Positions 1 through 15,881 of a stretch of 15,881 nucleotides of DNA are shown one piece after another; positions within the stretch are counted from its first letter, which is position 1, and the number at the start of each line of letters is the position of its first letter. A program made the position numbers and the translations under genes. Below the pieces are notes generated by a model, which worked only from the letters and a program-made list of their open reading frames with translations, did not search any database and was not told the DNA's origin. Source of the stretch: Clostridia bacterium. Its GTDB lineage: Bacteria > Bacillota > Clostridia > Christensenellales > Aristaeellaceae. The DNA is taken from contig JAZRWA010000024.1 of NCBI GenBank assembly GCA_045599485.1, forward strand, positions 1 to 15,881, written 5' to 3'.

Positions 1-2876
1 TCCTTCAAAGCCGTCTCGTGCGCCAGGCGGGTCACGCTTGTCTTTTGCCGGTGATGCAGCTTTGCGGATGGGTGCATACGGCGCAAAAACTATTCGTTAA
101 AGTCAGTATCCAAGGCAGGAAGCACAACAGGATGGTCACCGGGCAGCTCTTGATGGTATTCGCTTTCATCGTGAAAACGCACGTCCCACAGGCTGCCGTT
201 GAGGGCGGTGTACAGCTGATCGCGGTTGTCGGTCAGTGCGGGCTCGATGGCCTGTCCCACCCATTCCAGCATGCTGGTGGCACAGCCGCTGGCATAATCG
301 CCGGGCGGCAGGCGCCATTTTTTGCGGGCGCTGTCCAGCGACTTGGGGCTGGCCAATAGGATAAGGCGGTCGCGGGCGCGTGTCATGGCCACATAGAGCA
401 GGCGGGCTTCCTCGGCGCGGTCCTCACGGGCGGCACGCTCGGCAATGGCACGGCCGCCCAGCGTCTGGTCGGCAACACGTTCTTCGGCATCCACCCATTT
501 GAGGGAAAGCCCCAGCTGCTGATCGATGCGCAGCGTATCGCCGCTGCGCGCGCCGCGGAAGGCTCTGGCCATTTCCATGACAAACACCACGGGGAATTCC
601 AGTCCCTTGGTTTTGTGGATGGTCATGATGCGAACCACATCGTCCTTTTCGCTCAGCTCTTTGGCGGTCGTTTTATCCGAAGAATGCAGGGCGGCCTCGG
701 AATTGCGCAGAAAATCAAACAGGGAATAGCGTGCCCCCTCATCCTGTGCCCTTTCACACAACAGGCGCAGGTTCGCCTGACGGATGCGGCCGTCCCTTTC
801 GGCCCCGGCGAGGGCGTAAATACCCGTTTCGCGCAGCAAATGGCGCAAAAGGGCGTCCACCGTCATCTGGTCGGACAGAAAACGCCATCGATCCAGTGTG
901 TCCAGCACGTGGGCGATGTCGGGCTCAGTCTCGCGCAGGGCAAAGATGCCTTCGTACAAATGGGCATATTTTGCGCAATTCTGGCTGATTTCCGCCAATC
1001 TTTCGGAAGAAAAGCCAAAGCAGGGCGTACGCAGGGCGGCAAGCAGCGGCAGATCCTGATAGGGGTTATCCAGCACGCGGATGAGGTTGACCATGTCCTC
1101 CACCTCGCGCTGCTCGTAAAAGCTGGCGTCGGCATCGCTGAAGCAGGGAATGCCCTCGTTTTGCAGGATGCGGGCAATGGTCTCACTGCGGCCGCTGGCC
1201 TGACGGACCAGCAGAACAAAATCACGCCACTGCAGCTTGCGGTTTTGATACGGCTGCCCCACCAGCTGCTTGATGCGGCGCGCCGCCTGCTGTGCCTCGT
1301 ACATCCAGCCGCGGGTCAGCTCTTCGTTTTCGGCGGAGTCCTCGGAGGGCTTTTCTTCCCCATCCTTCTTTTTGACACCACCGATGAGGTGCAATTCGAC
1401 CGCGGGGCCCATTTCAGCGTCGCTGCGGGCGTTCAGCTCGGCATCCTTGTCATAATCCAGCTCAGCACTGCGCAGCGAGGCATCGGGTGTACCGGTTTTG
1501 CGCATGGCGCGCTTGAACACGCAGTTGACGGCATCCAGTATGTTTTTGTTGGAACGGAAGTTCTGGGACAGCACGATCTTACGCTCGGTGCCGTCCGCTT
1601 CCTTGCTGAAGCTTTCGTATTTGCCCAAAAACAGCGAGGGATCGGCCTGACGGAAGCGATAAATGGATTGTTTGACATCGCCGACCATAAACAGGCGGTT
1701 GCTTTCGGTATGGATCATGCGGACGATGCCTTCTTCAATGCCGGACACGTCCTGATATTCATCCACAAAGATCGCGTCATAGGAGGCGGCGACCTCGGCA
1801 CGGACACGGTCATCCTTCAATGCTTCGATGCACAGATGCTCAAGATCGTTATAATCCATCAGACCGCGCTGACGCTTGAACGCGGCATAGCGATCGGCAT
1901 AGTTGTGCACCAGACGGCACAGGGCGTTGGCCGGGGCCACGGTATCGGCGATACGGGATGTTTCCGACGCCAGATCATAGGAGACCAGCGCTTGCGCCTT
2001 TTTGAAGCAGTCCTTGGCTTCCTCACGAAAATCGGTATAGATCTGTTTGGCGGCAGGGTCGGGGGCGTTTTTCTTGGTAGCACGGGTCAGCGTGGCAAAC
2101 TTCAGCTCCTGGATGCTGTTCATGGCGCGCACGGACGCCATTGCTTCACTGATCAGGTCAAAATCCGCTTTGCAGCTGTCGGTGTACAGGGCAAGACTTG
2201 GATGGATCGCCAGCTGCGCTTCCATCTGCTCGATATAGGCGCGCGCGCCCTCCAGCTGCATCAGCGCTTCCTTGGCAAAGATCAGCTGCAGCGAGCGGAG
2301 AGAGGCAGGGTCGGTGGACGGCTTGTGCGTGTCGAGCCATTCCCACGGCTCCGGCTGCATCATGATAAAGCCGTACAGCTTTTCCGCCATATCGACGATC
2401 TCTTCATCCTCAAACTGCGCACGCAGCAAGCGATCTTCCTCCTAAGAAGAAGCACACATCTGCTCCACGGCTTCGCTCAGGGCTCGCAGGCGCAGAGGCG
2501 CCAATTGCGGGTCGGAGCCGATGCGGGCGTTGGGGTCGGCTCCGCACGCCTGAAAGTGCGTTTTGATGACATTGTGGCAAAAGACGTGCAGGGTGCTGAT
2601 CTGCGCGCGCTTCAAGGAGCGAAGCTGCTCCCGCATATGACGGTTCTAAGCGGCTTCTGCATCCAGAGCCCGTTCCATTTTGTCACGGAGCTCGGCGGCC
2701 GCGGCGCGTGTAAAGGTAATGATGAGAAAACGGGTCACTTCGCCGCCCGCGCGCAAAAGGCGCAGCACGTGCTCGATCAATACTGTGGATTTACCGCTGC
2801 CTGCGGCCGCGCTGACCAGCGTATCGTGGTTATCCGCTTCAATGGCCTTCAGCTGATCTTCTGTCCAAACGCGCAC
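1..2876 (-). CDS. addA: AddA/RecB-type UvrD-family (SF1) ATP-dependent helicase-nuclease. The 3' end runs off the window. The frame carries three in-frame TAG codons (2646-2648, 2442-2444, 90-92).
   Basis: Track ORFs 2646..2945, 2442..2636 and 90..2429 share one minus-strand frame (2945-2636=309 and 2636-2429=207, both multiples of 3). They are separated only by single TAG codons (plus-strand cta). The frame stays open past a third TAG at 90-92 for 29 more codons to the window edge (FLRRMHPSAKLHHRQKTSVTRLAHETALK). SF1 motifs occur in order across the pieces: Walker A AAAGSGKST (piece 1); ISTLHVFC (piece 2); VDEYQD, MVGDVKQSIYRFR, QNFRS, MTIHKTKGLEFPVVF and LYVAMTRARDRL (piece 3). The layout, and the K-x-S-V-T motif after the third TAG, resemble B. 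subtilis AddA as I recall it. The likely start is GTG at 2876 (MRVWTEDQLKAI), 6 nt after GGAGGG (2883-2888). The MFHVKH extension in the track is translation of the parS palindromes. No addB-like gene lies upstream. Confidence 0.8.
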
Positions 2877-3441: not shown

Positions 3442-5940
3442 ATGAAGCAATATCATGTAACGGGGATGAGCTGTGCCGCCTGCTCCGCCCGCGTGGAAAA
3501 AGCGGTCAAGGGCGTGCCCGGGGTGACGGAATGTGCTGTCAGCCTGCTGACCAACTCCATGGGCGTGGAAGGAACCGCCTCAGACGGCGACATCATCCGT
3601 GCGGTGACGGAGGCGGGCTACGGCTGCAGCCCCAAGGACGGAGGCAGTACCGCAAAAAGCGCCGCGTCCTCCGTGGATGAACTGACCGATACCGAAACGC
3701 CGAAAATGATCCGGCGTTTGATCGCCAGCCTGTGCCTGCTGCTGCCGCTGATGTATGTTTCCATGGGCGGCATGATGTGGGGCTGGCCTGTTCCCTCCCT
3801 GTTTGCGGGCAACGGCCTTGCCGTTGGCATTTATGAAATGCTTCTGGCAGGTCTGGTCATGGTCATCAACCAGAAGTTTTTTATCAGCGGCTTCAAGGGA
3901 CTGATCCACAAAGCCCCCAACATGGATACACTGGTGGCCATGGGCTCGTTTGCCTCGTTTGCGTGGTCGGTGGTGACGCTCTTCCGCATGACGCTGCCGG
4001 GCGCGATGCCGATGCATCTGCTGCACGACCTGTATTTTGAGTCGGCGGCCATGATCCTGACCCTCATCACCGTGGGCAAAACGCTGGAAGCGCGCAGCAA
4101 GGGCAAGACGACGGACGCGCTCAAGAGCCTGATGAAGCTCTCTCCCCGCACCGCGACCCTGGAAAGGGACGGAAAACAGGTGACGGTGCCCATTGAAGAG
4201 GTGCGCCCCGGCGATATCTTTGTATTGAAGCCCGGCGACAGCGTGCCGGTGGACGGCGTGATCGTGGAGGGCAGCGGCTCCCTCAATGAAAGCGCGCTGA
4301 CGGGCGAGAGCGTGCCTGCGGACAAGACGGTGGGCGACCGTGTCAGCGCCGCCACCATCAACCTGAACGGCGCGCTGCGCTGCCGGGCCGAGCGCGTGGG
4401 TGAGGATACCACGCTGGCGCAGATCATTCGCCTCTGCTCGGATGCCGCAGCGACCAAGGCCCCCATCGCGCGGCTGGCGGACAAGGTCAGCGGTGTGTTT
4501 GTGCCCGTGGTGCTGGGCATTGCTGCGGTGACGTTTATCATATGGCTGCTGCTGGGCGAAAGCACGGGCTTTGCGCTGGCAAGAGGCATCAGCGTGCTGG
4601 TCATCTCCTGCCCCTGTGCGCTGGGCCTGGCAACGCCGGTCGCTATCATGGCGGGCAGCGGCGTGGGTGCCAGGAACGGCATTCTGTTCAAGACCGCGGC
4701 CTCGCTGGAGCGGGCGGGACGGACGCGCGTGGCGGCGCTGGACAAGACCGGCACCATCACCGAGGGCGTGATGAGCGTGACCGATGTGCTGCCCGAAAAC
4801 GGCAGCGAGGAGGCGCTTTTGAAGCTGGCGGCCTCTTTGGAGGCGCGCAGTGAGCATCCCGTGGGCCGCGCCGTTGTAAAAGAGGCCGAAAAACGCGGCA
4901 TCATGGCCGAAAGCGTGACCGATTTTGCCGCGCTGCCGGGCAAGGGACTGATGGCGCGCCACGCCGGCGGCAAGCTGGTGGGCGGCAGCGTCAGCTACAT
5001 TGCGGAAGTGACCGAGCTGCCCGGGAACGTGAAAAAACAGGCGGAAAGGCTCTCTGACGAGGGCAAAACGCCGCTGTGCTTTGCCTTGGAGGATCGCTAC
5101 ATCGGCATGATCGCTGTGCGGGATACCCTCAAGAGCGACAGCGCGGAGGCCATCAAACAGCTGAAAAACATGGGCGTGCGCGTGGTGATGATCACGGGCG
5201 ACAATGCCCGCACGGCGGCCGCCATGGCCAAAGCCGCGGGGGTGGACGAGGTGCTTTCCGGTGTGCTGCCCGACGGCAAGGAAGCCGCCGTGCGGAGCCT
5301 CAAAAAGTACGGCCCTGTCATGATGGTGGGCGACGGCATCAACGATGCCCCCGCCCTGATCAGCGCCGATGTGGGCGCCGCCATTGGCGCGGGCACCGAT
5401 GTGGCCATTGACGCCGCCGATATCGTACTGATGAAGAGCAGCCTCAGCGATGTGGCGGCGGCCATCCGCCTGTCCCGCGCGACGCTGACCAACATCCGCG
5501 AGAACCTTTTCTGGGCGTTTTTCTACAACGCGGTGTGCATTCCGCTGGCCGCCGGTGCGTTTATCCATTGGACGGGCTGGCAGATGAGCCCCATGCTGGG
5601 CGCTGCCGCCATGAGCCTTTCCAGCTTCTGCGTGGTGAGCAATGCCCTGCGCCTCAACCTGATCGATATTCATTCCCCCAGGCATGATCACCGTCTGAAG
5701 GGCAAGGCGCCTCAAACGACCGTGCTGGAGCTGGAAGTGGAGGGCATGATGTGCCACCACTGCGAGCGGGCGGTATCCGAAGCGCTGTCGGCGATCGACG
5801 GCGTGGTGGACGCCTCCGCCGATTTTGAGACCGGTAAGGTCCTGCTGACCTGCGTAAAACCCATTCCGGAGCAGGTGCTCCGCCAAGCCATAGAGGAGGC
5901 GGATTATGCCCTGCTGTCCGTAAAAGAACAGGAGAAATAA
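3442..5940 (+). CDS. copA: Copper-translocating P1B-type ATPase with N-terminal and C-terminal HMA metal-binding domains
   Basis: The 832-aa product has an N-terminal HMA domain (GMSCAACSARVE), the TGES motif (LTGESVP), the transmembrane CPC motif (SCPCALGLATP), DKTGTIT, MITGDN and VGDGINDAP. A second HMA domain sits at the C-terminus (VEGMMCHHCERAV). AAGAGG RBS. The stop is TAA. Confidence 0.95.
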   Translation: MKQYHVTGMSCAACSARVEKAVKGVPGVTECAVSLLTNSMGVEGTASDGDIIRAVTEAGYGCSPKDGGSTAKSAASSVDELTDTETPKMIRRLIASLCLLLPLMYVSMGGMMWGWPVPSLFAGNGLAVGIYEMLLAGLVMVINQKFFISGFKGLIHKAPNMDTLVAMGSFASFAWSVVTLFRMTLPGAMPMHLLHDLYFESAAMILTLITVGKTLEARSKGKTTDALKSLMKLSPRTATLERDGKQVTVPIEEVRPGDIFVLKPGDSVPVDGVIVEGSGSLNESALTGESVPADKTVGDRVSAATINLNGALRCRAERVGEDTTLAQIIRLCSDAAATKAPIARLADKVSGVFVPVVLGIAAVTFIIWLLLGESTGFALARGISVLVISCPCALGLATPVAIMAGSGVGARNGILFKTAASLERAGRTRVAALDKTGTITEGVMSVTDVLPENGSEEALLKLAASLEARSEHPVGRAVVKEAEKRGIMAESVTDFAALPGKGLMARHAGGKLVGGSVSYIAEVTELPGNVKKQAERLSDEGKTPLCFALEDRYIGMIAVRDTLKSDSAEAIKQLKNMGVRVVMITGDNARTAAAMAKAAGVDEVLSGVLPDGKEAAVRSLKKYGPVMMVGDGINDAPALISADVGAAIGAGTDVAIDAADIVLMKSSLSDVAAAIRLSRATLTNIRENLFWAFFYNAVCIPLAAGAFIHWTGWQMSPMLGAAAMSLSSFCVVSNALRLNLIDIHSPRHDHRLKGKAPQTTVLELEVEGMMCHHCERAVSEALSAIDGVVDASADFETGKVLLTCVKPIPEQVLRQAIEEADYALLSVKEQEK

Positions 5941-5943
5941 ACC

Positions 5944-6702
5944 ATGAACATGAATCAGCGCCGCGAAAGGATCGTGCAGCTTGTCAACGGCGGGGGCTCG
6001 GTGAGCTTTTCCACCCTGAAAAAGGAGTTTCCTCAGATATCGGAAATGACCCTGCGGCGCGATCTGGAGTATCTGGATCAGAACAGGCTGCTGATCCGCA
6101 CGCATGGCGGCGCGCGCAGTGTGGAGGTGCTGGTGGGCACGGATGACCTTTTGCCCCGCCGTACACAGCGCAACGCGCAGGAAAAGCAGCAGATCGCCGT
6201 CAAGGCGGCGCAGCTGCTGCAGGCGAACACGACGGTGTTCCTCGATTCCGGCTCCACCTGCACCGAACTGGCCCGGGTGTTTCCCGATGGACCGTACATG
6301 ATCTTTACCACCTCGGTGGGCTGCGCGGTCGATCTGGCGCGGCTGCAGCAGCCGCAGGTGCATATGCTGGGCGGCGCACTCAATGCCAGCTCACTGTCCG
6401 TCAACGGCGCCGCGACGCTGGAATGGCTGAATCATATCAATTTTGACATCGCGTTCATGGGCGTGACAGGGTATATTCAAAACCGCGGCTTTACCTGCGG
6501 CAGCGAGGAGGAATGCGCCGTCAAGCGCGCCGTCATTCAGCGCGCCGACCGCGTGGTGCTTTTGATGGATGCCAGCAAGGTGGGCGTGACAAGCACGTTT
6601 ACCTTTGCGGATGCCGACCGTGTCAGCATTCTGGTGACGGACGGCCTGCTGGACGAAAAGACCGAGCGGCACTTTGAAGCCTGCGGCATACAGGTGTTGT
6701 AA
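5944..6702 (+). CDS. DeoR/GlpR-family transcriptional regulator
   Basis: The 252-aa product has an N-terminal HTH (FSTLKKEFPQISEMTLRRDLEYLDQNRLLIRTHGGA) and a C-terminal DeoR sugar-binding-type domain (VFLDSGSTCTELA, DIAFMGVTG). The ATG lies 3 nt after the copA TAA, and AGGAGA lies inside the copA 3' end. The stop is TAA. Confidence 0.85.
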   Translation: MNMNQRRERIVQLVNGGGSVSFSTLKKEFPQISEMTLRRDLEYLDQNRLLIRTHGGARSVEVLVGTDDLLPRRTQRNAQEKQQIAVKAAQLLQANTTVFLDSGSTCTELARVFPDGPYMIFTTSVGCAVDLARLQQPQVHMLGGALNASSLSVNGAATLEWLNHINFDIAFMGVTGYIQNRGFTCGSEEECAVKRAVIQRADRVVLLMDASKVGVTSTFTFADADRVSILVTDGLLDEKTERHFEACGIQVL

Positions 6703-6711
6703 GTTTTTAAG

Positions 6712-6753
6712 GGGGGAACCACGCTTTCCGAAGCCGGAAAGCATGGTTCCCCC
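6712..6753 (+). terminator. Long hairpin downstream of the DeoR-family gene; also the core of the left inverted repeat of the low-GC islet
   Basis: GGGGGAACCACGCTTTCCG (6712-6730), loop AAGC, CGGAAAGCATGGTTCCCCC (6735-6753). The stem is 19 bp with one mismatch. It is followed by TTTAACC, a second small stem CCCTT/AAGGG and then CAGTTTTTT. Confidence 0.55.
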
Positions 6754-6788
6754 TTTAACCCCTTCCGAGAAAGGGCAGTTTTTTAATA
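6712..6788. repeat. Left copy of a ~70-75 bp imperfect inverted repeat flanking the low-GC islet
   Basis: GGGGGAACCACGCTTTCCGAAGCCGGAAAGCATGGTTCCCCCTTTAACCCCTTCCGAGAAAGGGCAGTTTTTTAAT aligns with the reverse complement of 7630-7701 (GGGGCGACCACGCTTTCAGAGCCTGAAAGCATGGTCGCCCCAAACCCCACCCGAGAAAGGGCTGTTTTAAT). By hand alignment this is roughly 85% identity with one indel. Confidence 0.7.
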
Positions 6789-6799
6789 TGGTATAATAA

Positions 6800-6846
6800 C
6801 ACCCCTGCATGTTTGGAAGATGATAGTCAACCATGATGCAGGGGTG
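6800..6846 (-). terminator. Hairpin downstream of the low-GC ORF
   Basis: CACCCCTGCAT (6800-6810) pairs with ATGCAGGGGTG (6836-6846): an 11-bp stem with a 25-nt loop. On the minus strand it is followed by TTATTATACCATATTAAAAAA. The large loop makes it an atypical intrinsic terminator. Confidence 0.4.
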
Positions 6847-6865
6847 TGTTTGGTCCTATTATTGA

Positions 6866-7513
6866 TTAATCCCATGTTATATGCATATACTTTTCAGTTG
6901 ACTCAAGGTAACGTTTAGCTCCTATCAGATATCCCAAATCATGCAGCCGCTTTCTTTGCATTTCAGTTTGAGCGGTCATGGTATGCACAAACATCGTTTC
7001 ATCGGGGATATATAATCCTCCGTATGTTGCGATTTGCAGTATTGGCAAGTGATATTTGTCTGAATACCCAATGTATTCGCCGTAGACTTCAACCGGAATG
7101 TTTTCAAATCCGTCAAACACAGTTTGATTTTTTTCATATCCCGGATTACTTCCCACAAAGATACCGTTTTGCTTCAGAGCGTAAATAACAATCCATTCAT
7201 TATTGTTTTCGTCGGTGATGCGAAATGCAAAAAGATCATCGATTCTAAAGTACTGAGTTATGGAACCATAAATTGCAATTAACCGTTCTTCAAAACGATC
7301 GTTCCAGTTATCAAAGTAGGTTTCATAATCAACGTGCATAAATGGAATAATGCTTTCACCACGCTGGGCTTTATCGATGATTGCCTGAGCTTCTGAGGGA
7401 TTATATCCCAATGCAAGCATTTTGCCGTAATTCAACGTAACTGTGCTTTCACTGTCAGCCAAACAATTTGAGACGAGCAGAAAGCAGATGATGGTCAACA
7501 GAACTTTCTTCAT
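6866..7513 (-). CDS. Hypothetical secreted protein encoded in a low-GC islet; no family recognised
   Basis: Track ORF 6866..7528. The preferred start is the second ATG (7513, MKKVLLTIICFLLVSNCLADS), with GGAGG 8 nt upstream. The N-terminus is a typical signal peptide. Sampled 60-nt lines inside are 37-43% GC, against about 65-68% in the flanks. The stop is TAA. Confidence 0.65.
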   Translation of the reverse strand: MKKVLLTIICFLLVSNCLADSESTVTLNYGKMLALGYNPSEAQAIIDKAQRGESIIPFMHVDYETYFDNWNDRFEERLIAIYGSITQYFRIDDLFAFRITDENNNEWIVIYALKQNGIFVGSNPGYEKNQTVFDGFENIPVEVYGEYIGYSDKYHLPILQIATYGGLYIPDETMFVHTMTAQTEMQRKRLHDLGYLIGAKRYLESTEKYMHITWD

Positions 7514-7629
7514 AGTAAAAACCTCCATCGCATTACGAGACTAATAAATCAGTTCGTCAAAAATGCAACTATTCCTTCTGCACAAACAAAGTTGGTGATA
7601 GTTTTTTGCGCGTGTCTGAGAAGTTATTA

Positions 7630-7701
7630 GATTAAAACAGCCCTTTCTCGGGTGGGGTTTGGGGCGACCATGCTTTCAGGCTCTGAAAGCGTGGTCGCCC
7701 C
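7630..7701. repeat. Right copy of the inverted repeat flanking the low-GC islet; contains the hairpin that would terminate the EamA gene
   Basis: Hairpin GGGGCGACCATGCTTTCAG (7661-7679), loop GCT, CTGAAAGCGTGGTCGCCCC (7683-7701). It is preceded by AAAACAGCCCTTTCTCGGGTGGGGTTT. The reverse complement matches 6712-6788. Confidence 0.7.
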
Positions 7702-9750: not shown

Positions 9751-9784
9751 GGCTTGTTTCCTCCATAATAGATGTTCGGCAAAG

Positions 9785-9814
9785 ATTATAGCACAGGTTG
9801 GGGTAAAATGTCAA
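9785..9814 (-). promoter_or_regulatory. Promoter of the DUF362 gene
   Basis: On the minus strand: TTGACA (9809-9814), 18 nt, TATAAT (9785-9790), with an extended -10 TGC immediately upstream. Confidence 0.55.
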
Positions 9815-9840
9815 AGAACAGGCTTTGCGCGGCCCTCTGA

Positions 9841-9877
9841 CAACAAAGAAGCGGCAGGGTTTTTGACCTTGCCGCTT
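9841..9877 (-). terminator. Probable terminator downstream of hup
   Basis: Minus-strand RNA AAGCGGCAAGG-TCAAAAA-CCCTGCCGCTT (one mismatch), followed by CTTTGTTG. Confidence 0.45.
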
Positions 9878-9895
9878 TGGAAGCGTGATGGGAGA

Positions 9896-10177
9896 TCAGT
9901 CCTTGCCGTTCAGCTTGTCGCGCAGGCTGGCGGCGGGCTTGAAGGCGATGGCGCGGGAAGCGGCAATTTCGATGGCTTCGCCGGTGGAGGGGTTGCGGCC
10001 GGTGCGGGCAGCGCGCTCCTTGACCTCAAAGGTGCCGAACTTGCTGAGGGAGACCTTGCTGCCGGCGCAGACAGACTCGGCGATCAGGTCGAAAACGGCT
10101 TCCACGGCCTCTTTGGCTTCGGTGTTATTCATGCCGGTCTTTTTGGCGACGGCGGCAAACAGATCCTGCTTGTTCAT
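9896..10177 (-). CDS. hup: HU-family nucleoid-associated DNA-binding protein
   Basis: The 93-aa product MNKQDLFAAVAKKTG...FGTFEVKERAARTGRNPSTGEAIEIAASRAIAFKPAASLRDKL is a textbook HU/IHF fold sequence. GGAGGT RBS. The stop is TGA. Confidence 0.95.
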   Translation of the reverse strand: MNKQDLFAAVAKKTGMNNTEAKEAVEAVFDLIAESVCAGSKVSLSKFGTFEVKERAARTGRNPSTGEAIEIAASRAIAFKPAASLRDKLNGKD

Positions 10178-10241
10178 GGGGATACCTCCGAATAATGTAA
10201 TCGCCCGGGTGGGGCGTAGTCAGCCTTATCAAGTATACATA

Positions 10242-11531
10242 TTAATTTTCGCTTGTCAAGGCTTTTTCTGTTTCTTCTGTCCGCGAAACAAGGACAGTTA
10301 CGGCGCGCTGCAGCTCTTCCTCGGCGGACTTTCCCTCGCGGCGCAGACGGTCGACCAGCAGCAGAAGCTCCTTTTGCGGGTTGTTTTCAACAAGGTCGGC
10401 GATGTTGTCGCCGTGCGCCTGAAGCTTTTTGAGCACCTTCTCCGCCCGGAGCAGAGCGGGCAGCGACAGCGACACGGCGCGCAGCGTATCGGCAAAGCCG
10501 GCGGTGCCGCGCTCCCGCTGCTTGACCTTTTCCCAGTTGAGAAGGACCTCGTCGGCGGTGCCGCAATGCACATCGCCGAAGATGTGCTCGTGACGACGTA
10601 CCATTTTGCTGACGATGCCGCTGGTGACGTCGGACAGCTCAAAGGTGCCGTACTGCGCCCCGATATCGGACTGGAACACGATCTGCAGCAGCACATCGCC
10701 CAGCTCGTCCGCCACGTGCTCCCAATCCCGCTCACTGACCGCCTGCGAGACCTCGTAGGCTTCCTCAATCAGATAGCGGGAAAGCGTGTCATGCGTCTGC
10801 TCCCGGTCCCACGGGCAGCCGTTTTGCCCCCGCAGCAGCGCCATTACACGCACCAGATCGTAAAAATCATGGCGTTCGCGCGCCTGCACCGGGGCGGGCG
10901 GCAGGTAGAGCGCGGCGGTGTGGTCGTACTTCTTTTGACGGTCCATCTCCCACAGGGGGATGCGCACGGCTTCACGGTGCGCCCGGGACGTGGGCGGGAA
11001 GAACAACACCTCGGTCTCATCGCCGTACCACGGGGTGAGCTTCAGCTTGCATTCGCCCGCCAGATAGGGCGTGTTGAGCTCGGTGATGAGGAGCCCTCCC
11101 TGTGTGTCGGTCACCTCCAGATCGGTGGCGCTGACCACACGCATGGCCCCGCGCGCCTGCGCCGCCTGCAGCAGCGGCGCGGAAACGGGCATGCCGCCTT
11201 CGATGATGATATCGCCGGGGTGCTTTTCGCACAGCGCCTGCACGGTGGTGTCGGTCAGGGCATCCAGCACGGCATACACGGCCTTGCCGCGGGCAGCGGC
11301 CTTTTCGACGGCAGCCACGGCGGCGGCGGTGAATTCGTCAAAATCCTACGCGGACTCGTGCAGGGCATCCAGAGAGGTAAAGGCAATGCCCTGTTCGGCA
11401 AGGTACTTGCCCGCGTCGGTCAGCGCGGTGCGCAGCACCAGGCGTTTGGCGGTTTTGAGGGTATCGAGCACGCCCAGGGTGAGGTGCTCACGCGGGCCGG
11501 GGCCCAGGGAAACGACGGTCACGGAATGCAT
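10242..11531 (-). CDS. yabN: YabN-like fusion protein (N-terminal tetrapyrrole-methylase-family SAM methyltransferase domain plus MazG NTP pyrophosphohydrolase domain); contains one in-frame TAG at 11346-11348
   Basis: Track ORFs 11346..11648 (real start ATG 11531, MHSVTVVSLGPGP, RBS GAGGAGG) and 10242..11318 are in the same frame (11348-11318=30). They are joined by TAG plus 9 sense codons (...LDALHESA-TAG-DFDEFTAAAVAAVEK...). The MazG core is present downstream (GCPWDREQTH, EEAYEV, ELGDVLLQIV, RRHEHIFG). The gene order flippase-yabN-hup matches the yabM-yabN neighbourhood of Bacillus and Clostridia. The final stop is TAA. Confidence 0.85.
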
Positions 11532-13606: not shown

Positions 13607-14194
13607 TTATAGGCTGTGATGCGGGAAAAGAGCTTCGTAATCCTTCCTCAGGATGGCAAACAGATACACATCGCGGTACTGTCCCTTGCTGTAGACGCGG
13701 CCGCGCAGCAGCCCCTCCCGGGTCATGCCGCATTTTTCCATCACACGGCCGGAGGCGGGGTTGCGGGGATCGTGCATGGCTTCCACCCGGTTGAGACGCA
13801 GCTCTTCAAAGCTGAAGCGCAGCAGCGCGCCGAGCGCTTCGGTGGCGTAGCCGCGGTTCCATACATCCCGGGCGAGGGAATAGCCGATCTCGGCACAGTG
13901 GCTGTCGCAGTCGATGCAGCTGAAGCTGACGGTGCCAAGGACGCGGTGATCCTCCTTGCGCTCAATGGCCAGGCTGCCGGGCAGCCCCAAACGGTACTGG
14001 CGCCTGAGGCGGCGGATGTAAGCGCGCGTTTCGGCGGGCGAGGCGTGCGCCTTGAGCGGTTCAAAGCGGCTGACCTACGGATCGCCGTAGCAGCGGAACA
14101 GATCGCGGCTGTCCTGCATCGTGACGGGGCGCAGCACCAGCCGCGGCGTCTCGACCTCGGGCAGCAGGCGAAAAACACGTCGGTAATCCTGCAT
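13607..14194 (-). CDS. RimJ/RimL-like GNAT N-acetyltransferase with one in-frame TAG at 14075-14077 (codon 40)
   Basis: Hand translation from ATG 14194 (RBS AGAGG) gives MQDYRRVFRLLPEVETPRLVLRPVTMQDSRDLFRCYGDP-TAG-VSRFEPLKAHASPAETRAYIRRLRRQYRLGLPGSLAIERKEDHRVLG.... This runs in frame into track ORF 13607..13990 (14194-14077=117 and 14194-13990=204). The N-terminal piece is the canonical first strand and helix of Acetyltransf_3-type GNATs. The acetyl-CoA motif WNRGYATEA lies after the TAG. The final stop is TAA. Confidence 0.8.
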
Positions 14195-14212
14195 AAAGGA
14201 AACCTCTTGATA

Positions 14213-14241
14213 ATTATCCCATATTCAGGGAAAAAATGCAA
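14213..14241 (-). promoter_or_regulatory. Promoter of the GNAT / TIGR03905 / small-ORF operon
   Basis: On the minus strand: TTGCAT (14236-14241), 17 nt, GATAAT (14213-14218), with TGG (an extended -10 TGn) just upstream. Confidence 0.5.
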
Positions 14242-15044: not shown

Positions 15045-15881
15045 ATGAAAAAACATTTTGCCGCTTCCCTGACGGCGCTGGTGACGGCGCTGCTGCTGGT
15101 GCTTGGCTGCACAGGCGCTTTGGCGGCCAATGGGGTGCCGGAGGTGCTGTTTTCGCTGACCTGGAACGAAAACGGCGTGATGATGCAGTCTGACGCTGCG
15201 CCGCTGGCGGACAGCCCGGACAGCTACTGGCTGTATGTGCCGCAGGGCGCGCTTCAGAACGACGCGACCCTTTCGGTGTATGACACCACGGGGCGTTATG
15301 CCTATTTTTCACTGGCAAACGGCACGCCGCTTTCGGCCGTTGGCTATCTGGATGCCGGCAGCCAGGCAAACGGCAACGCCCTGCCGGTGCTGGCGTATGA
15401 CGCCTCCTATCAGCTGATCGGGCAGTTGAACCTGTACATTTCCACTGTGACCGATGCGCCGCTGCCGCCCGCGCAGCCCGATACCACGGTGATGGTGTAT
15501 TATGTCGATCAGAACTATAACAGCATCGCTTCGCCCACCACGGTGAATGTGCCTTACGGTCAGACCGTGACGGTAACGCCCTCCGCGTGGGACATTCCCG
15601 CGGGCTACACCCTGCAGGGCAGCAGCCAGCAGAATGCCAGCTACACGGACAGCGCGATCTATTTTGTGTACGCCGCCCCGCAGAACACAATGGTGACGGT
15701 GTACTATGTCGATCAGAACTACAACAGCATCGCGACCCCGACCACCATTGAGGTGCCGTACGGACAGACGGTGACCGTCACGCCCTCCGCGTGGGACATT
15801 CCCACGGGCTACACCCTGCAGGGCAGCAGCCAGCAGAATGCCAGCTACACGGACAGCGCGATCTATTTTGTGTACGCCGCG
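15045..15881 (+). CDS. Secreted, possibly lipid-anchored surface protein with MucBP-like tandem repeats; 3' end off window
   Basis: This ORF is not in the supplied track because it has no stop inside the window; it was hand-translated from ATG 15045 (GGAGG upstream). The product begins MKKHFAASLTALVTALLLVLGCTGALAANG..., a signal peptide with a lipobox-like VLGC. Later it has two 68-aa repeats, V(Y)YVDQNYNSIA.PTT..VPYGQTVTVTPSAWDIP.GYTLQGSSQQNASYTDSAIYFVYAA, resembling MucBP adhesin domains. The frame is open for 279 codons to the window end. Confidence 0.75.
   Translation, partial: MKKHFAASLTALVTALLLVLGCTGALAANGVPEVLFSLTWNENGVMMQSDAAPLADSPDSYWLYVPQGALQNDATLSVYDTTGRYAYFSLANGTPLSAVGYLDAGSQANGNALPVLAYDASYQLIGQLNLYISTVTDAPLPPAQPDTTVMVYYVDQNYNSIASPTTVNVPYGQTVTVTPSAWDIPAGYTLQGSSQQNASYTDSAIYFVYAAPQNTMVTVYYVDQNYNSIATPTTIEVPYGQTVTVTPSAWDIPTGYTLQGSSQQNASYTDSAIYFVYAA
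15486..15881 (+). repeat. 204-bp in-frame tandem repeat (unit 1 is 15486-15689; unit 2 is 15690-15881 and is cut by the window end)
   Basis: TATGTCGATCAGAACT recurs at 15501 and 15705, giving a 204-nt period. The distal 102 nt of the units (15576-15677 vs 15780-15881) differ at only 2 positions. The proximal ~90 nt differ at many positions. Confidence 0.85.

Follow-up and report, generated by a model that had tools for sequence, protein, structure and literature searches.

The stretch of DNA analyzed here (the window) comprises positions 1 to 15,881 of contig JAZRWA010000024.1, from the Clostridia bacterium assembly GCA_045599485.1, and is thus 15,881 nucleotides (nt) long. It is a chromosomal segment of Clostridia type with a GC (guanine plus cytosine) content of 59.6%, and it carries genes for AddA, CsoR, CopA, DeoR, a low-GC hypothetical protein, EamA, a DUF362 ferredoxin-like protein, HU, YabN, a SpoVB/MurJ-like flippase, a membrane peptide of 36 amino acids (aa), TSCPD, a GNAT acetyltransferase, NUDIX, and a secreted repeat protein. 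This report concerns the GNAT gene, the TAG codon that interrupts its reading frame, and what that codon probably means in the lineage from which the window comes. The GNAT gene and the elements around it, all on the minus strand, are as follows.

13607..14194, minus strand: full-length gene for a GNAT acetyltransferase of the RimJ/RimL type, 195 codons, from ATG (14194-14192) to TAA (13609-13607)
14075..14077, minus strand: in-frame TAG at codon 40 of the GNAT gene, read in the sequence; putative glutamate (Glu) codon
13607..13990, minus strand: open reading frame (ORF) of 127 aa with a TTG start at 13990, publicly annotated as P0002; a truncated GNAT
14203..14208, minus strand: Shine-Dalgarno-like AAGAGG, 8 nt 5' of ATG 14194, read in the sequence
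14213..14241, minus strand: possible promoter, weak, TTGCAT (14241-14236) and GATAAT (14218-14213) separated by 17 nt, read in the sequence

An earlier note on this DNA, made from its letters alone, had proposed that ATG 14194 opens a frame holding a single TAG, with the N-terminal part of the GNAT fold lying upstream in that same frame. This proved correct, as the TAG at 14075-14077 is the sole interruption of a 195-codon frame that reads ...ETPRLVLRPVTMQDSRDLFRCYGDP-TAG-VSRFEPL... across it. Residues 18-158 of the read-through protein match PF13302 (Acetyltransf_3) over profile positions 1-138 of 138 in one ungapped stretch that crosses the TAG, with a score of 124.2 bits (E 7.8e-36, against a gathering cut-off of 25.4). 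The truncated 127-aa ORF covers only profile positions 56-138 and scores 92.1 bits, so that the 39 codons upstream of the TAG add about 32 bits and score as part of the domain. The profile alignment is unbroken at the TAG, as the earlier note had expected.

The homologs of the GNAT (more than 100) are all collinear with it, at about 190-210 aa (full range 186-233 aa), and in their alignment the codon lies within a conserved D-P-x-V-[SA]-R-[HYF] segment, in which D38 and V41 do not vary and at least 90% of sequences have P39; the placement of the TAG inside a DPxVxR(F/Y) segment, suggested earlier from the sequence, was thereby borne out. The residue expected in the TAG column is Glu, which is found in 75 of 118 outgroup homologs. 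The closest GNAT, P0001, is 79% identical and lies on the syntenic contig L001 of a sister species, and in five assemblies of that species (L001, L012, L014, L015, and L016) the orthologous codon is GAG (Glu). Residues 15-187 of the read-through protein furthermore align with the solved RimJ/RimL-like GNATs 3fbu, 3igr, 2z0z, and 1nsl; these PDB matches are distant (best E-value 7.7e-16, 62 bits), and 3fbu has aspartate at the TAG position.

Upstream of ATG 14194, the ribosome-binding site postulated in the earlier note is present as the AAGAGG at 14208-14203. The promoter that it had read as TTGCAT-17-GATAAT is likewise present as written, with a visible TGn extended -10 element, but its -35 box matches TTGACA at only three of six positions and a consensus promoter scan made no call there. 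Taken together, the profile and homolog comparisons suggest that the gene most likely encodes an intact 195-aa enzyme of the Acetyltransf_3 family with Glu40 in a D-P-E-V-S-R-F segment, and the shorter 127-aa protein of the public record is then an artefact of gene calling and translation with table 11. "RimJ-like" serves here as a family label for the GNAT; RimJ activity, that is, N-terminal acetylation of ribosomal protein S5, is putative.

The earlier note had also described the GNAT TAG as one of several in the window, and this holds: when TAG is read as a sense codon, five in-frame TAGs are found in three genes (one in GNAT, one in YabN, and three in AddA). Neither TAA nor TGA occurs in frame in the genes of the window, and frameshifts are absent. 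The features of the other two genes are as follows.

10242..11531, minus strand: YabN-type gene with an N-terminal TP_methylase domain (PF00590) and a MazG domain (PF03819), assigned with Pfam; one in-frame TAG
11346..11348, minus strand: TAG of the YabN-type gene, common to the window species and the sister species; the column has Glu in 75 of 147 representative homologs
3..2876, minus strand: AddA, helicase-nuclease subunit A, with UvrD-helicase and UvrD_C domains, running off the window start; three in-frame TAGs
2646..2648, minus strand: first AddA TAG, window species only; TCG (serine, Ser) in the sister species; variable column
2442..2444, minus strand: second AddA TAG, window species only; TTG (leucine, Leu) in the sister species; variable column
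90..92, minus strand: third AddA TAG, common to all sister-species assemblies; the deposited proteins P0369 (NCBI) and P0370 (ENA) end exactly here, at ...DTDFNE

Judged from its distribution in the sequences compared, the YabN TAG at 11346-11348 is an ancestral TAG. With five occurrences in about 4,470 codons (approximately 1 per 900), TAG would account for about 2% of Glu codons in the window. One further TAG, at about 7541-7543 in the low-GC frame, was considered and rejected as non-coding, lying upstream of the ATG of that ORF. The 13 complete genes of the window end in TAA (11 genes) or TGA (2 genes), and none ends in TAG; stop usage is strongly skewed to TAA despite a GC content of about 60%.

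The sister species provided the main point of comparison. It is represented by NCBI contigs of the metagenome-assembled genome (MAG) GCA_024404275.1, "Clostridia bacterium Horse_feces223," from horse faeces (L002/L013 and L017), by ENA assemblies made with MEGAHIT (L012, L014, and L015), and by Logan assemblies from four different runs (L001, L007, L016, and L018). Across the window and these assemblies, ten distinct sites were found, listed here by gene and alignment column.

YabN column 61: TAG in the window, L001, L002, and L012; no sense codon in the clade
AddA column 926: TAG in the window, L007, and L017, with the ENA protein P0370 ending there; no sense codon in the clade
AddA column 1079: TAG in L007, L017, and L018; no sense codon in the clade; beyond the window edge
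GNAT column 39: TAG in the window only; GAG in five sister assemblies
AddA column 74: TAG in the window only; TCG (Ser) in the sister species
AddA column 142: TAG in the window only; TTG (Leu) in the sister species
SpoVB-like column 77: TAG in L001, L002, L014, and L015; GAG in L012 and CAG in the window
AddA column 815: TAG in L007; GAG in L017 and the window
AddA column 956: TAG in L007; GAA in L017
PrmC column 201: TAG in L017 and L018; GAA in L007

TAG is the only kind of interruption among these ten, TAA, TGA, and frameshifts being absent, and the same positions carry it in independently made assemblies of different runs (NCBI, ENA with MEGAHIT, and Logan). Their distribution is coherent with the clade: in-frame TAGs are found in the window and the sister species and are absent from the nearest outgroups. 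The genes are intact and free of in-frame TAG in the outgroup contigs L003-L006, whose SpoVB-like proteins are 65-69% identical, and in the JGI contig that carries P0122 and P0243 (56% identity for AddA and 68% for PrmC), and the homologs of GNAT, AddA, and PrmC (more than 100 of each) are full length. An automated test of whether in-frame TAG density differs between clade and outgroups, run on stop-to-stop frames selected by GC3, gave P = 1.0 but was set aside as meaningless, since it selected antisense frames and lost real genes. One of these outgroup contigs, L003 (CAVDRM010000015.1), is titled "Anaerovibrio sp." (Negativicutes), yet it is 69% identical and syntenic to the Clostridia SpoVB-like region, and the bin is probably mislabelled.

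TAG is used sparingly as a terminator outside the clade. Genes of the outgroup loci end mostly in TAA or TGA and in about 1 of 15 cases in TAG, and an orthologous gene of 151-153 aa in L008 and L010 ends in TAG, which indicates that TAG is a rare but real terminator there. Among the read-through frames inspected in the sister-species loci L012 and L017, no TAG terminator was found. A scarcity of TAG stops in the ancestor may have made reassignment easier.

The identity of the encoded residue can be approached through the codons with which TAG is exchanged between close strains or species. At five sites TAG swaps with a Glu codon, three times with GAG (AddA 815, SpoVB 77, and GNAT 39) and twice with GAA (AddA 956 and PrmC 201), and a change from TAG to GAA takes two mutational steps. 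The columns themselves are in agreement. The PrmC TAG column, which is the conserved E-P of the HemK/PrmC motif, has Glu in 117 of 118 homologs; AddA column 933, just upstream of helicase motif VI, has Glu in 102 of 118; and Glu is the commonest residue at AddA column 1145. In the clade sequences, the TAG at the near-invariant Glu of the PrmC E-P motif lies within the genes at 8020-8850 of L017 and 1699-2529 of L018, and the gene with GAA lies at 6317-7147 of L007. PrmC methylates release factors 1 and 2 (RF1 and RF2). Since PrmC carries a TAG in some strains, one part of the lineage's own termination apparatus relies on read-through of this codon.

A Codetta-style column test, calibrated on the same alignments and based on a small sample of 9-10 TAG sites, gave the following mean log-odds for Glu, in bits, together with the fraction of columns in which Glu was the top residue.

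TAG (9 sites): +1.88; 0.56
GAG (110 sites): +1.63; 0.55
GAA (99 sites): +1.68; 0.56
CAG: -1.51; 0.10
AAG: -1.41; 0.22
TCG: -1.49; 0.09
TTG: -3.65; 0.03
TGG: -3.68; 0.00
TAC: -3.83; 0.02

TAG was indistinguishable from GAG and GAA in this test and unlike the other codons. Summed over the TAG sites, Glu reached +16.9 bits, and the runner-up, glutamine (Gln), reached -1.4 bits.

Whether the TAG-bearing genes are functional was addressed from the ratio of nonsynonymous to synonymous divergence (dN/dS), estimated by the Nei-Gojobori method between the window and the sister species for each segment on either side of each TAG. For GNAT, dN/dS was 0.28 upstream (39 codons) and 0.31 downstream (149 codons), with synonymous divergence (dS) of 0.44-0.48. 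The corresponding values were 0.19 and 0.10 for YabN and 0 and 0.18 for the SpoVB-like gene, and the five segments of AddA between its TAGs gave 0.009, 0.09, 0.07, 0.04, and 0.14 (dS 0.46-0.74); over all compared segments dS ranged from 0.17 to 0.74. These values point to purifying selection on either side of every TAG and to TAG-bearing genes that are functional. Furthermore, because TAGs are shared between species at substantial dS, they must be older than the species split and have coexisted with purifying selection downstream of them. Under the codon usage of these genes, random nonsense mutation would yield TAG in 55-62% of events, and the probability that nine of nine events are TAG is 0.005-0.014.

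We therefore propose, at a probability of roughly 0.78, that TAG is a Glu sense codon in both species of this uncultured herbivore-gut Clostridia lineage and that the GNAT gene is intact, a reading drawn from sequence comparison. The parts of this proposal differ in strength. It is very probable that TAG is translated in the clade, and probable that it means Glu through true reassignment. We also consider it likely, with somewhat more reserve, that a dedicated tRNA(CUA) following RF1 loss accounts for the reassignment in these gut Clostridia of about 60% GC, which would add a fourth kind of stop-codon code to those of bacteria, and the first in which UAG is the codon concerned.

Bacteria terminate translation with two codon-specific factors, of which RF1 recognizes UAA and UAG, and RF2 recognizes UAA and UGA. 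If the three to four TAGs in each AddA message are to be decoded efficiently, a tRNA-Glu(CUA) would be required, together with loss or disabling of RF1. We envisage that TAG terminators were scarce from the outset; a tRNA with anticodon CUA, charged with Glu, would decode TAG, and it could plausibly have arisen from a duplicate tRNA-Glu(CUC) by a C36-to-A change. RF1 would have been lost or inactivated, which would leave UAA and UGA, both read by RF2, as the only stops. This would be in line with the terminators observed, TAA and TGA. A local recoding signal was considered as well and ruled out, as no downstream structure and no common context was found at the TAGs: the 100 nt downstream of them fold no better than shuffled sequence (z -0.27 to +0.77), and the flanking bases differ between sites.

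Several observations weigh against the proposal that TAG encodes Glu. It is based on a small sample, namely some 35 kb of sequence from the clade, in which 10 distinct TAG sites were considered. The GNAT TAG in particular is known from one assembly only: the clusters of P0002 and P0371 have one member each, the window species is a single assembly in the collections searched, and exact-protein look-ups with NUDIX, TSCPD, and P0241 found no second assembly of it. DNA-pattern scans of JGI metagenomes around the YabN and GNAT TAG sites gave no match, and the clade seems to be absent from that collection. Two of the AddA TAGs, both confined to the window, are aligned with a TCG (Ser) and a TTG (Leu) codon of the sister species, in columns where Glu is a minority residue; as these columns are variable, the two sites are uninformative rather than contradictory. 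The missing TAG terminators are not significant alone, because the outgroups use TAG in only about 1 of 15 genes. As for the decoding machinery, scans of the window and of seven related loci, including four contigs of the clade, found no tRNA gene. The gene order DUF1385-prmC-prfA, in which prfA encodes RF1, occurs in many Firmicutes, but in the outgroups prmC and prfA are not adjacent, and the contigs of the clade break off at prmC, so that this neighbourhood is uninformative on RF1. In the outgroup contigs L008-L010, whose PrmC is 55-56% identical, DUF1385-prmC is followed by VanW and TetR genes instead of prfA.

The main alternative, which accepts translation of TAG and which we regard as unlikely, is that the codon is not cleanly Glu: it might be read as Gln by a supE-like tRNA-Gln(CUA), as pyrrolysine (Pyl) by a pyl system, or by a natural suppressor that competes with a retained RF1, so that read-through would be partial and ambiguous. 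Gln is the usual outcome where TAG has been recoded in phages and in many eukaryotes (PMC8629427; bioRxiv 10.1101/2021.08.26.457843), it ranks second after Glu in the column test, and in the SpoVB-like gene the window has CAG where the sister species has TAG. Against this, Glu outscores Gln by about 18 bits, Gln does not occur once in the PrmC column, and the five close-strain swaps all involve GAG or GAA, never CAG or CAA. For Pyl there is the example of a genome-wide TAG-to-Pyl code in archaea (bioRxiv 10.1101/2024.09.30.615893); however, so bulky a residue is implausible at the near-invariant Glu positions of PrmC and AddA, no PYLIS-like structure lies 3' of the TAGs, and TAG swaps with Glu codons. 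Partial suppression would be compatible with the fact that both the tRNA and RF1 are unobserved in the clade sequence, but inefficient read-through of three to four TAGs would almost abolish AddA, yet all of its segments are under strong purifying selection.

It is also conceivable, if distinctly improbable, that the TAG is a genuine nonsense mutation and that GNAT, like the other genes with a TAG, is a pseudogene or a recently inactivated allele in a decaying or hypermutating population. The GNAT TAG is a single G-to-T change away from the GAG of the sister species, TAG is the commonest one-step nonsense product here, the GNAT site comes from one assembly, and in-frame stops of pseudogenes can mimic reassignment (Shulgina and Eddy, PMC8629427). 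Decay would nevertheless have to have produced TAG alone at ten distinct sites, with the low probability given above for nine, and to have spared genes in which TAGs are common to two species at dS 0.3-0.7 with dN/dS of 0.01-0.3 on both sides. Two of the swaps, those with GAA, require two substitutions; the affected genes include those for PrmC, AddA, and a MurJ/SpoVB-type flippase; and random hits would not give an enrichment of TAG in Glu columns equal to that of GAG and GAA. Very improbable, in our view, is a sequencing or assembly artefact, or foreign DNA with another code, such as that of a TAG-recoded phage or a ciliate contaminant. Consensus errors do occur in MAG contigs, TAG-recoded gut phages are common, and most calls of TAA and TAG as Glu or Gln in prokaryotic MAGs have been traced to protist contamination (KACI, bioRxiv 10.64898/2026.04.02.715157). 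The TAG sites other than that of GNAT are nevertheless repeated in independent assemblies, and the gene content and order (AddA, PrmC, CopA-CsoR, HU, YabN, and SpoVB-like), with ribosome-binding sites, are those of a Clostridia chromosome. A ciliate code is ruled out by the predominance of TAA among the terminators (11 of 13 genes) and by the bacterial operons that the genes form. Phage or plasmid origin was likewise rejected, given the chromosomal housekeeping genes and the absence of meaningful similarity to phage or plasmid records; the sole match to phage records spans 36 bp.

Reassignment of TAG to Glu in a bacterium would stand apart from the codes described to date. All known stop reassignments in bacteria affect UGA (Shulgina and Eddy, PMC8629427), a 2026 survey of about 2.7 million assemblies lists no bacterial reassignment of TAG (10.64898/2026.04.02.715157), and the gTranslate preprint mentions only the archaeal UAG-to-Pyl code (10.64898/2026.05.24.727570). 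Reassignment of UAG has so far been described only in phages (Gln), archaea (Pyl), and eukaryotes, and of these only eukaryotes are known to read it as Glu. In targeted full-text literature searches we found no report of UAG-to-Glu in bacteria. Reassignment of a stop codon is in itself known; what is new is the combination of domain (bacteria), codon (UAG), and amino acid (Glu), and this lineage would be the first reported to have a bacterial chromosome with a reassigned TAG.

The bacterial precedents are table 4 (UGA to tryptophan, in Mycoplasmatales, some endosymbionts, and Eggerthellaceae) and table 25 (UGA to glycine, in Absconditabacteria and Gracilibacteria). They resemble the present case in being clade-wide changes from stop to sense, as a consequence of which standard gene callers break up conserved genes, and they involve a cognate suppressor-type tRNA together with loss of RF2 (PMC8629427, PMC13462651). 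Here, in contrast, the codon is UAG, the residue is apparently Glu, and RF1, not RF2, is the factor whose loss would be expected; moreover, at about 60% GC the genome is neither AT-rich nor reduced, and coding density is barely changed. The nuclear codes of NCBI tables 30 (peritrich ciliates) and 31 (Blastocrithidia nonstop) assign both UAG and UAA to Glu. The change of UAG to Glu is thus the same in these eukaryotes (PMC12153298), but there UAA changes too and a single eRF1 is modified, whereas the present organism is a bacterium with operons of Clostridia type, in which TAG alone changes and most genes (11 of 13 in the window) end in TAA.

Two further systems share the codon. Gut phages that read TAG as Gln (table 15-like) also place in-frame TAGs in a prokaryotic system of the gut and decode them with phage-encoded suppressor tRNAs (bioRxiv 10.1101/2021.08.26.457843; PMC10879173). 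In these phages mostly late genes are affected and the host keeps the standard code, whereas the TAGs described here lie in chromosomal housekeeping genes, appear to specify Glu, and are accompanied by no phage genes. In the archaeal TAG-to-Pyl code, TAG is the sole codon affected and occurs at low density in ordinary genes, so that coding density is hardly altered and the code is easily missed (bioRxiv 10.1101/2024.09.30.615893; 10.64898/2026.05.24.727570). The present case is alike in these respects, but TAG here tracks Glu codons and Glu columns, which would not be expected of Pyl decoding, be it in archaea or in its conditional form in bacteria.

Other observations on the window concern its gene neighbourhoods. 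A low-GC island at 6391-7700, with about 44-48% GC against about 60% elsewhere, lies between DeoR and EamA and contains an ORF (6866-7528, minus strand) for a 220-aa signal-peptide protein with no Pfam match. Because the gap between DeoR and EamA is only about 310 bp in L012, the island seems to be an insertion that is confined to the window species. In L012, HU and a histidine-phosphatase (His_Phos_1) gene lie between YabN and DUF362 (5657-6751); the same interval of the window (9751-10241) holds only HU (9896-10177, minus strand), with no phosphatase gene. Finally, a secreted protein at 15045-15881 (plus strand), which runs off the window end, consists of near-identical tandem repeats of about 70 aa (...VYYVDQNYNSIA.PTT..VPYGQTVTVTPSAWDIPAGYTLQGSSQQNASYTDSAIYFVYAAP...). 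It is also present at 1-921 of L001, 3-848 of L012, and 1-708 of L013, where it gives a weak MucBP match, and it may be an adhesin.

In sum, the main significance of the GNAT TAG is what it says about the genetic code of the organism. If the proposed reassignment is true, RF1-dependent termination can be lost naturally in bacteria, here in a free-living gut bacterium, for which RF1-deletion Escherichia coli is an engineered precedent, and the lineage would hold a natural tRNA(CUA)/GluRS (glutamyl-tRNA synthetase) pair. It would also allow codon-capture and ambiguous-intermediate models to be tested against each other in a genome without AT bias. As TAG is too rare to lower coding density, tools based on coding density miss such a reassignment, which creates an annotation blind spot; in these MAGs, roughly one protein in four would have been deposited in truncated or split form, as the GNAT was.

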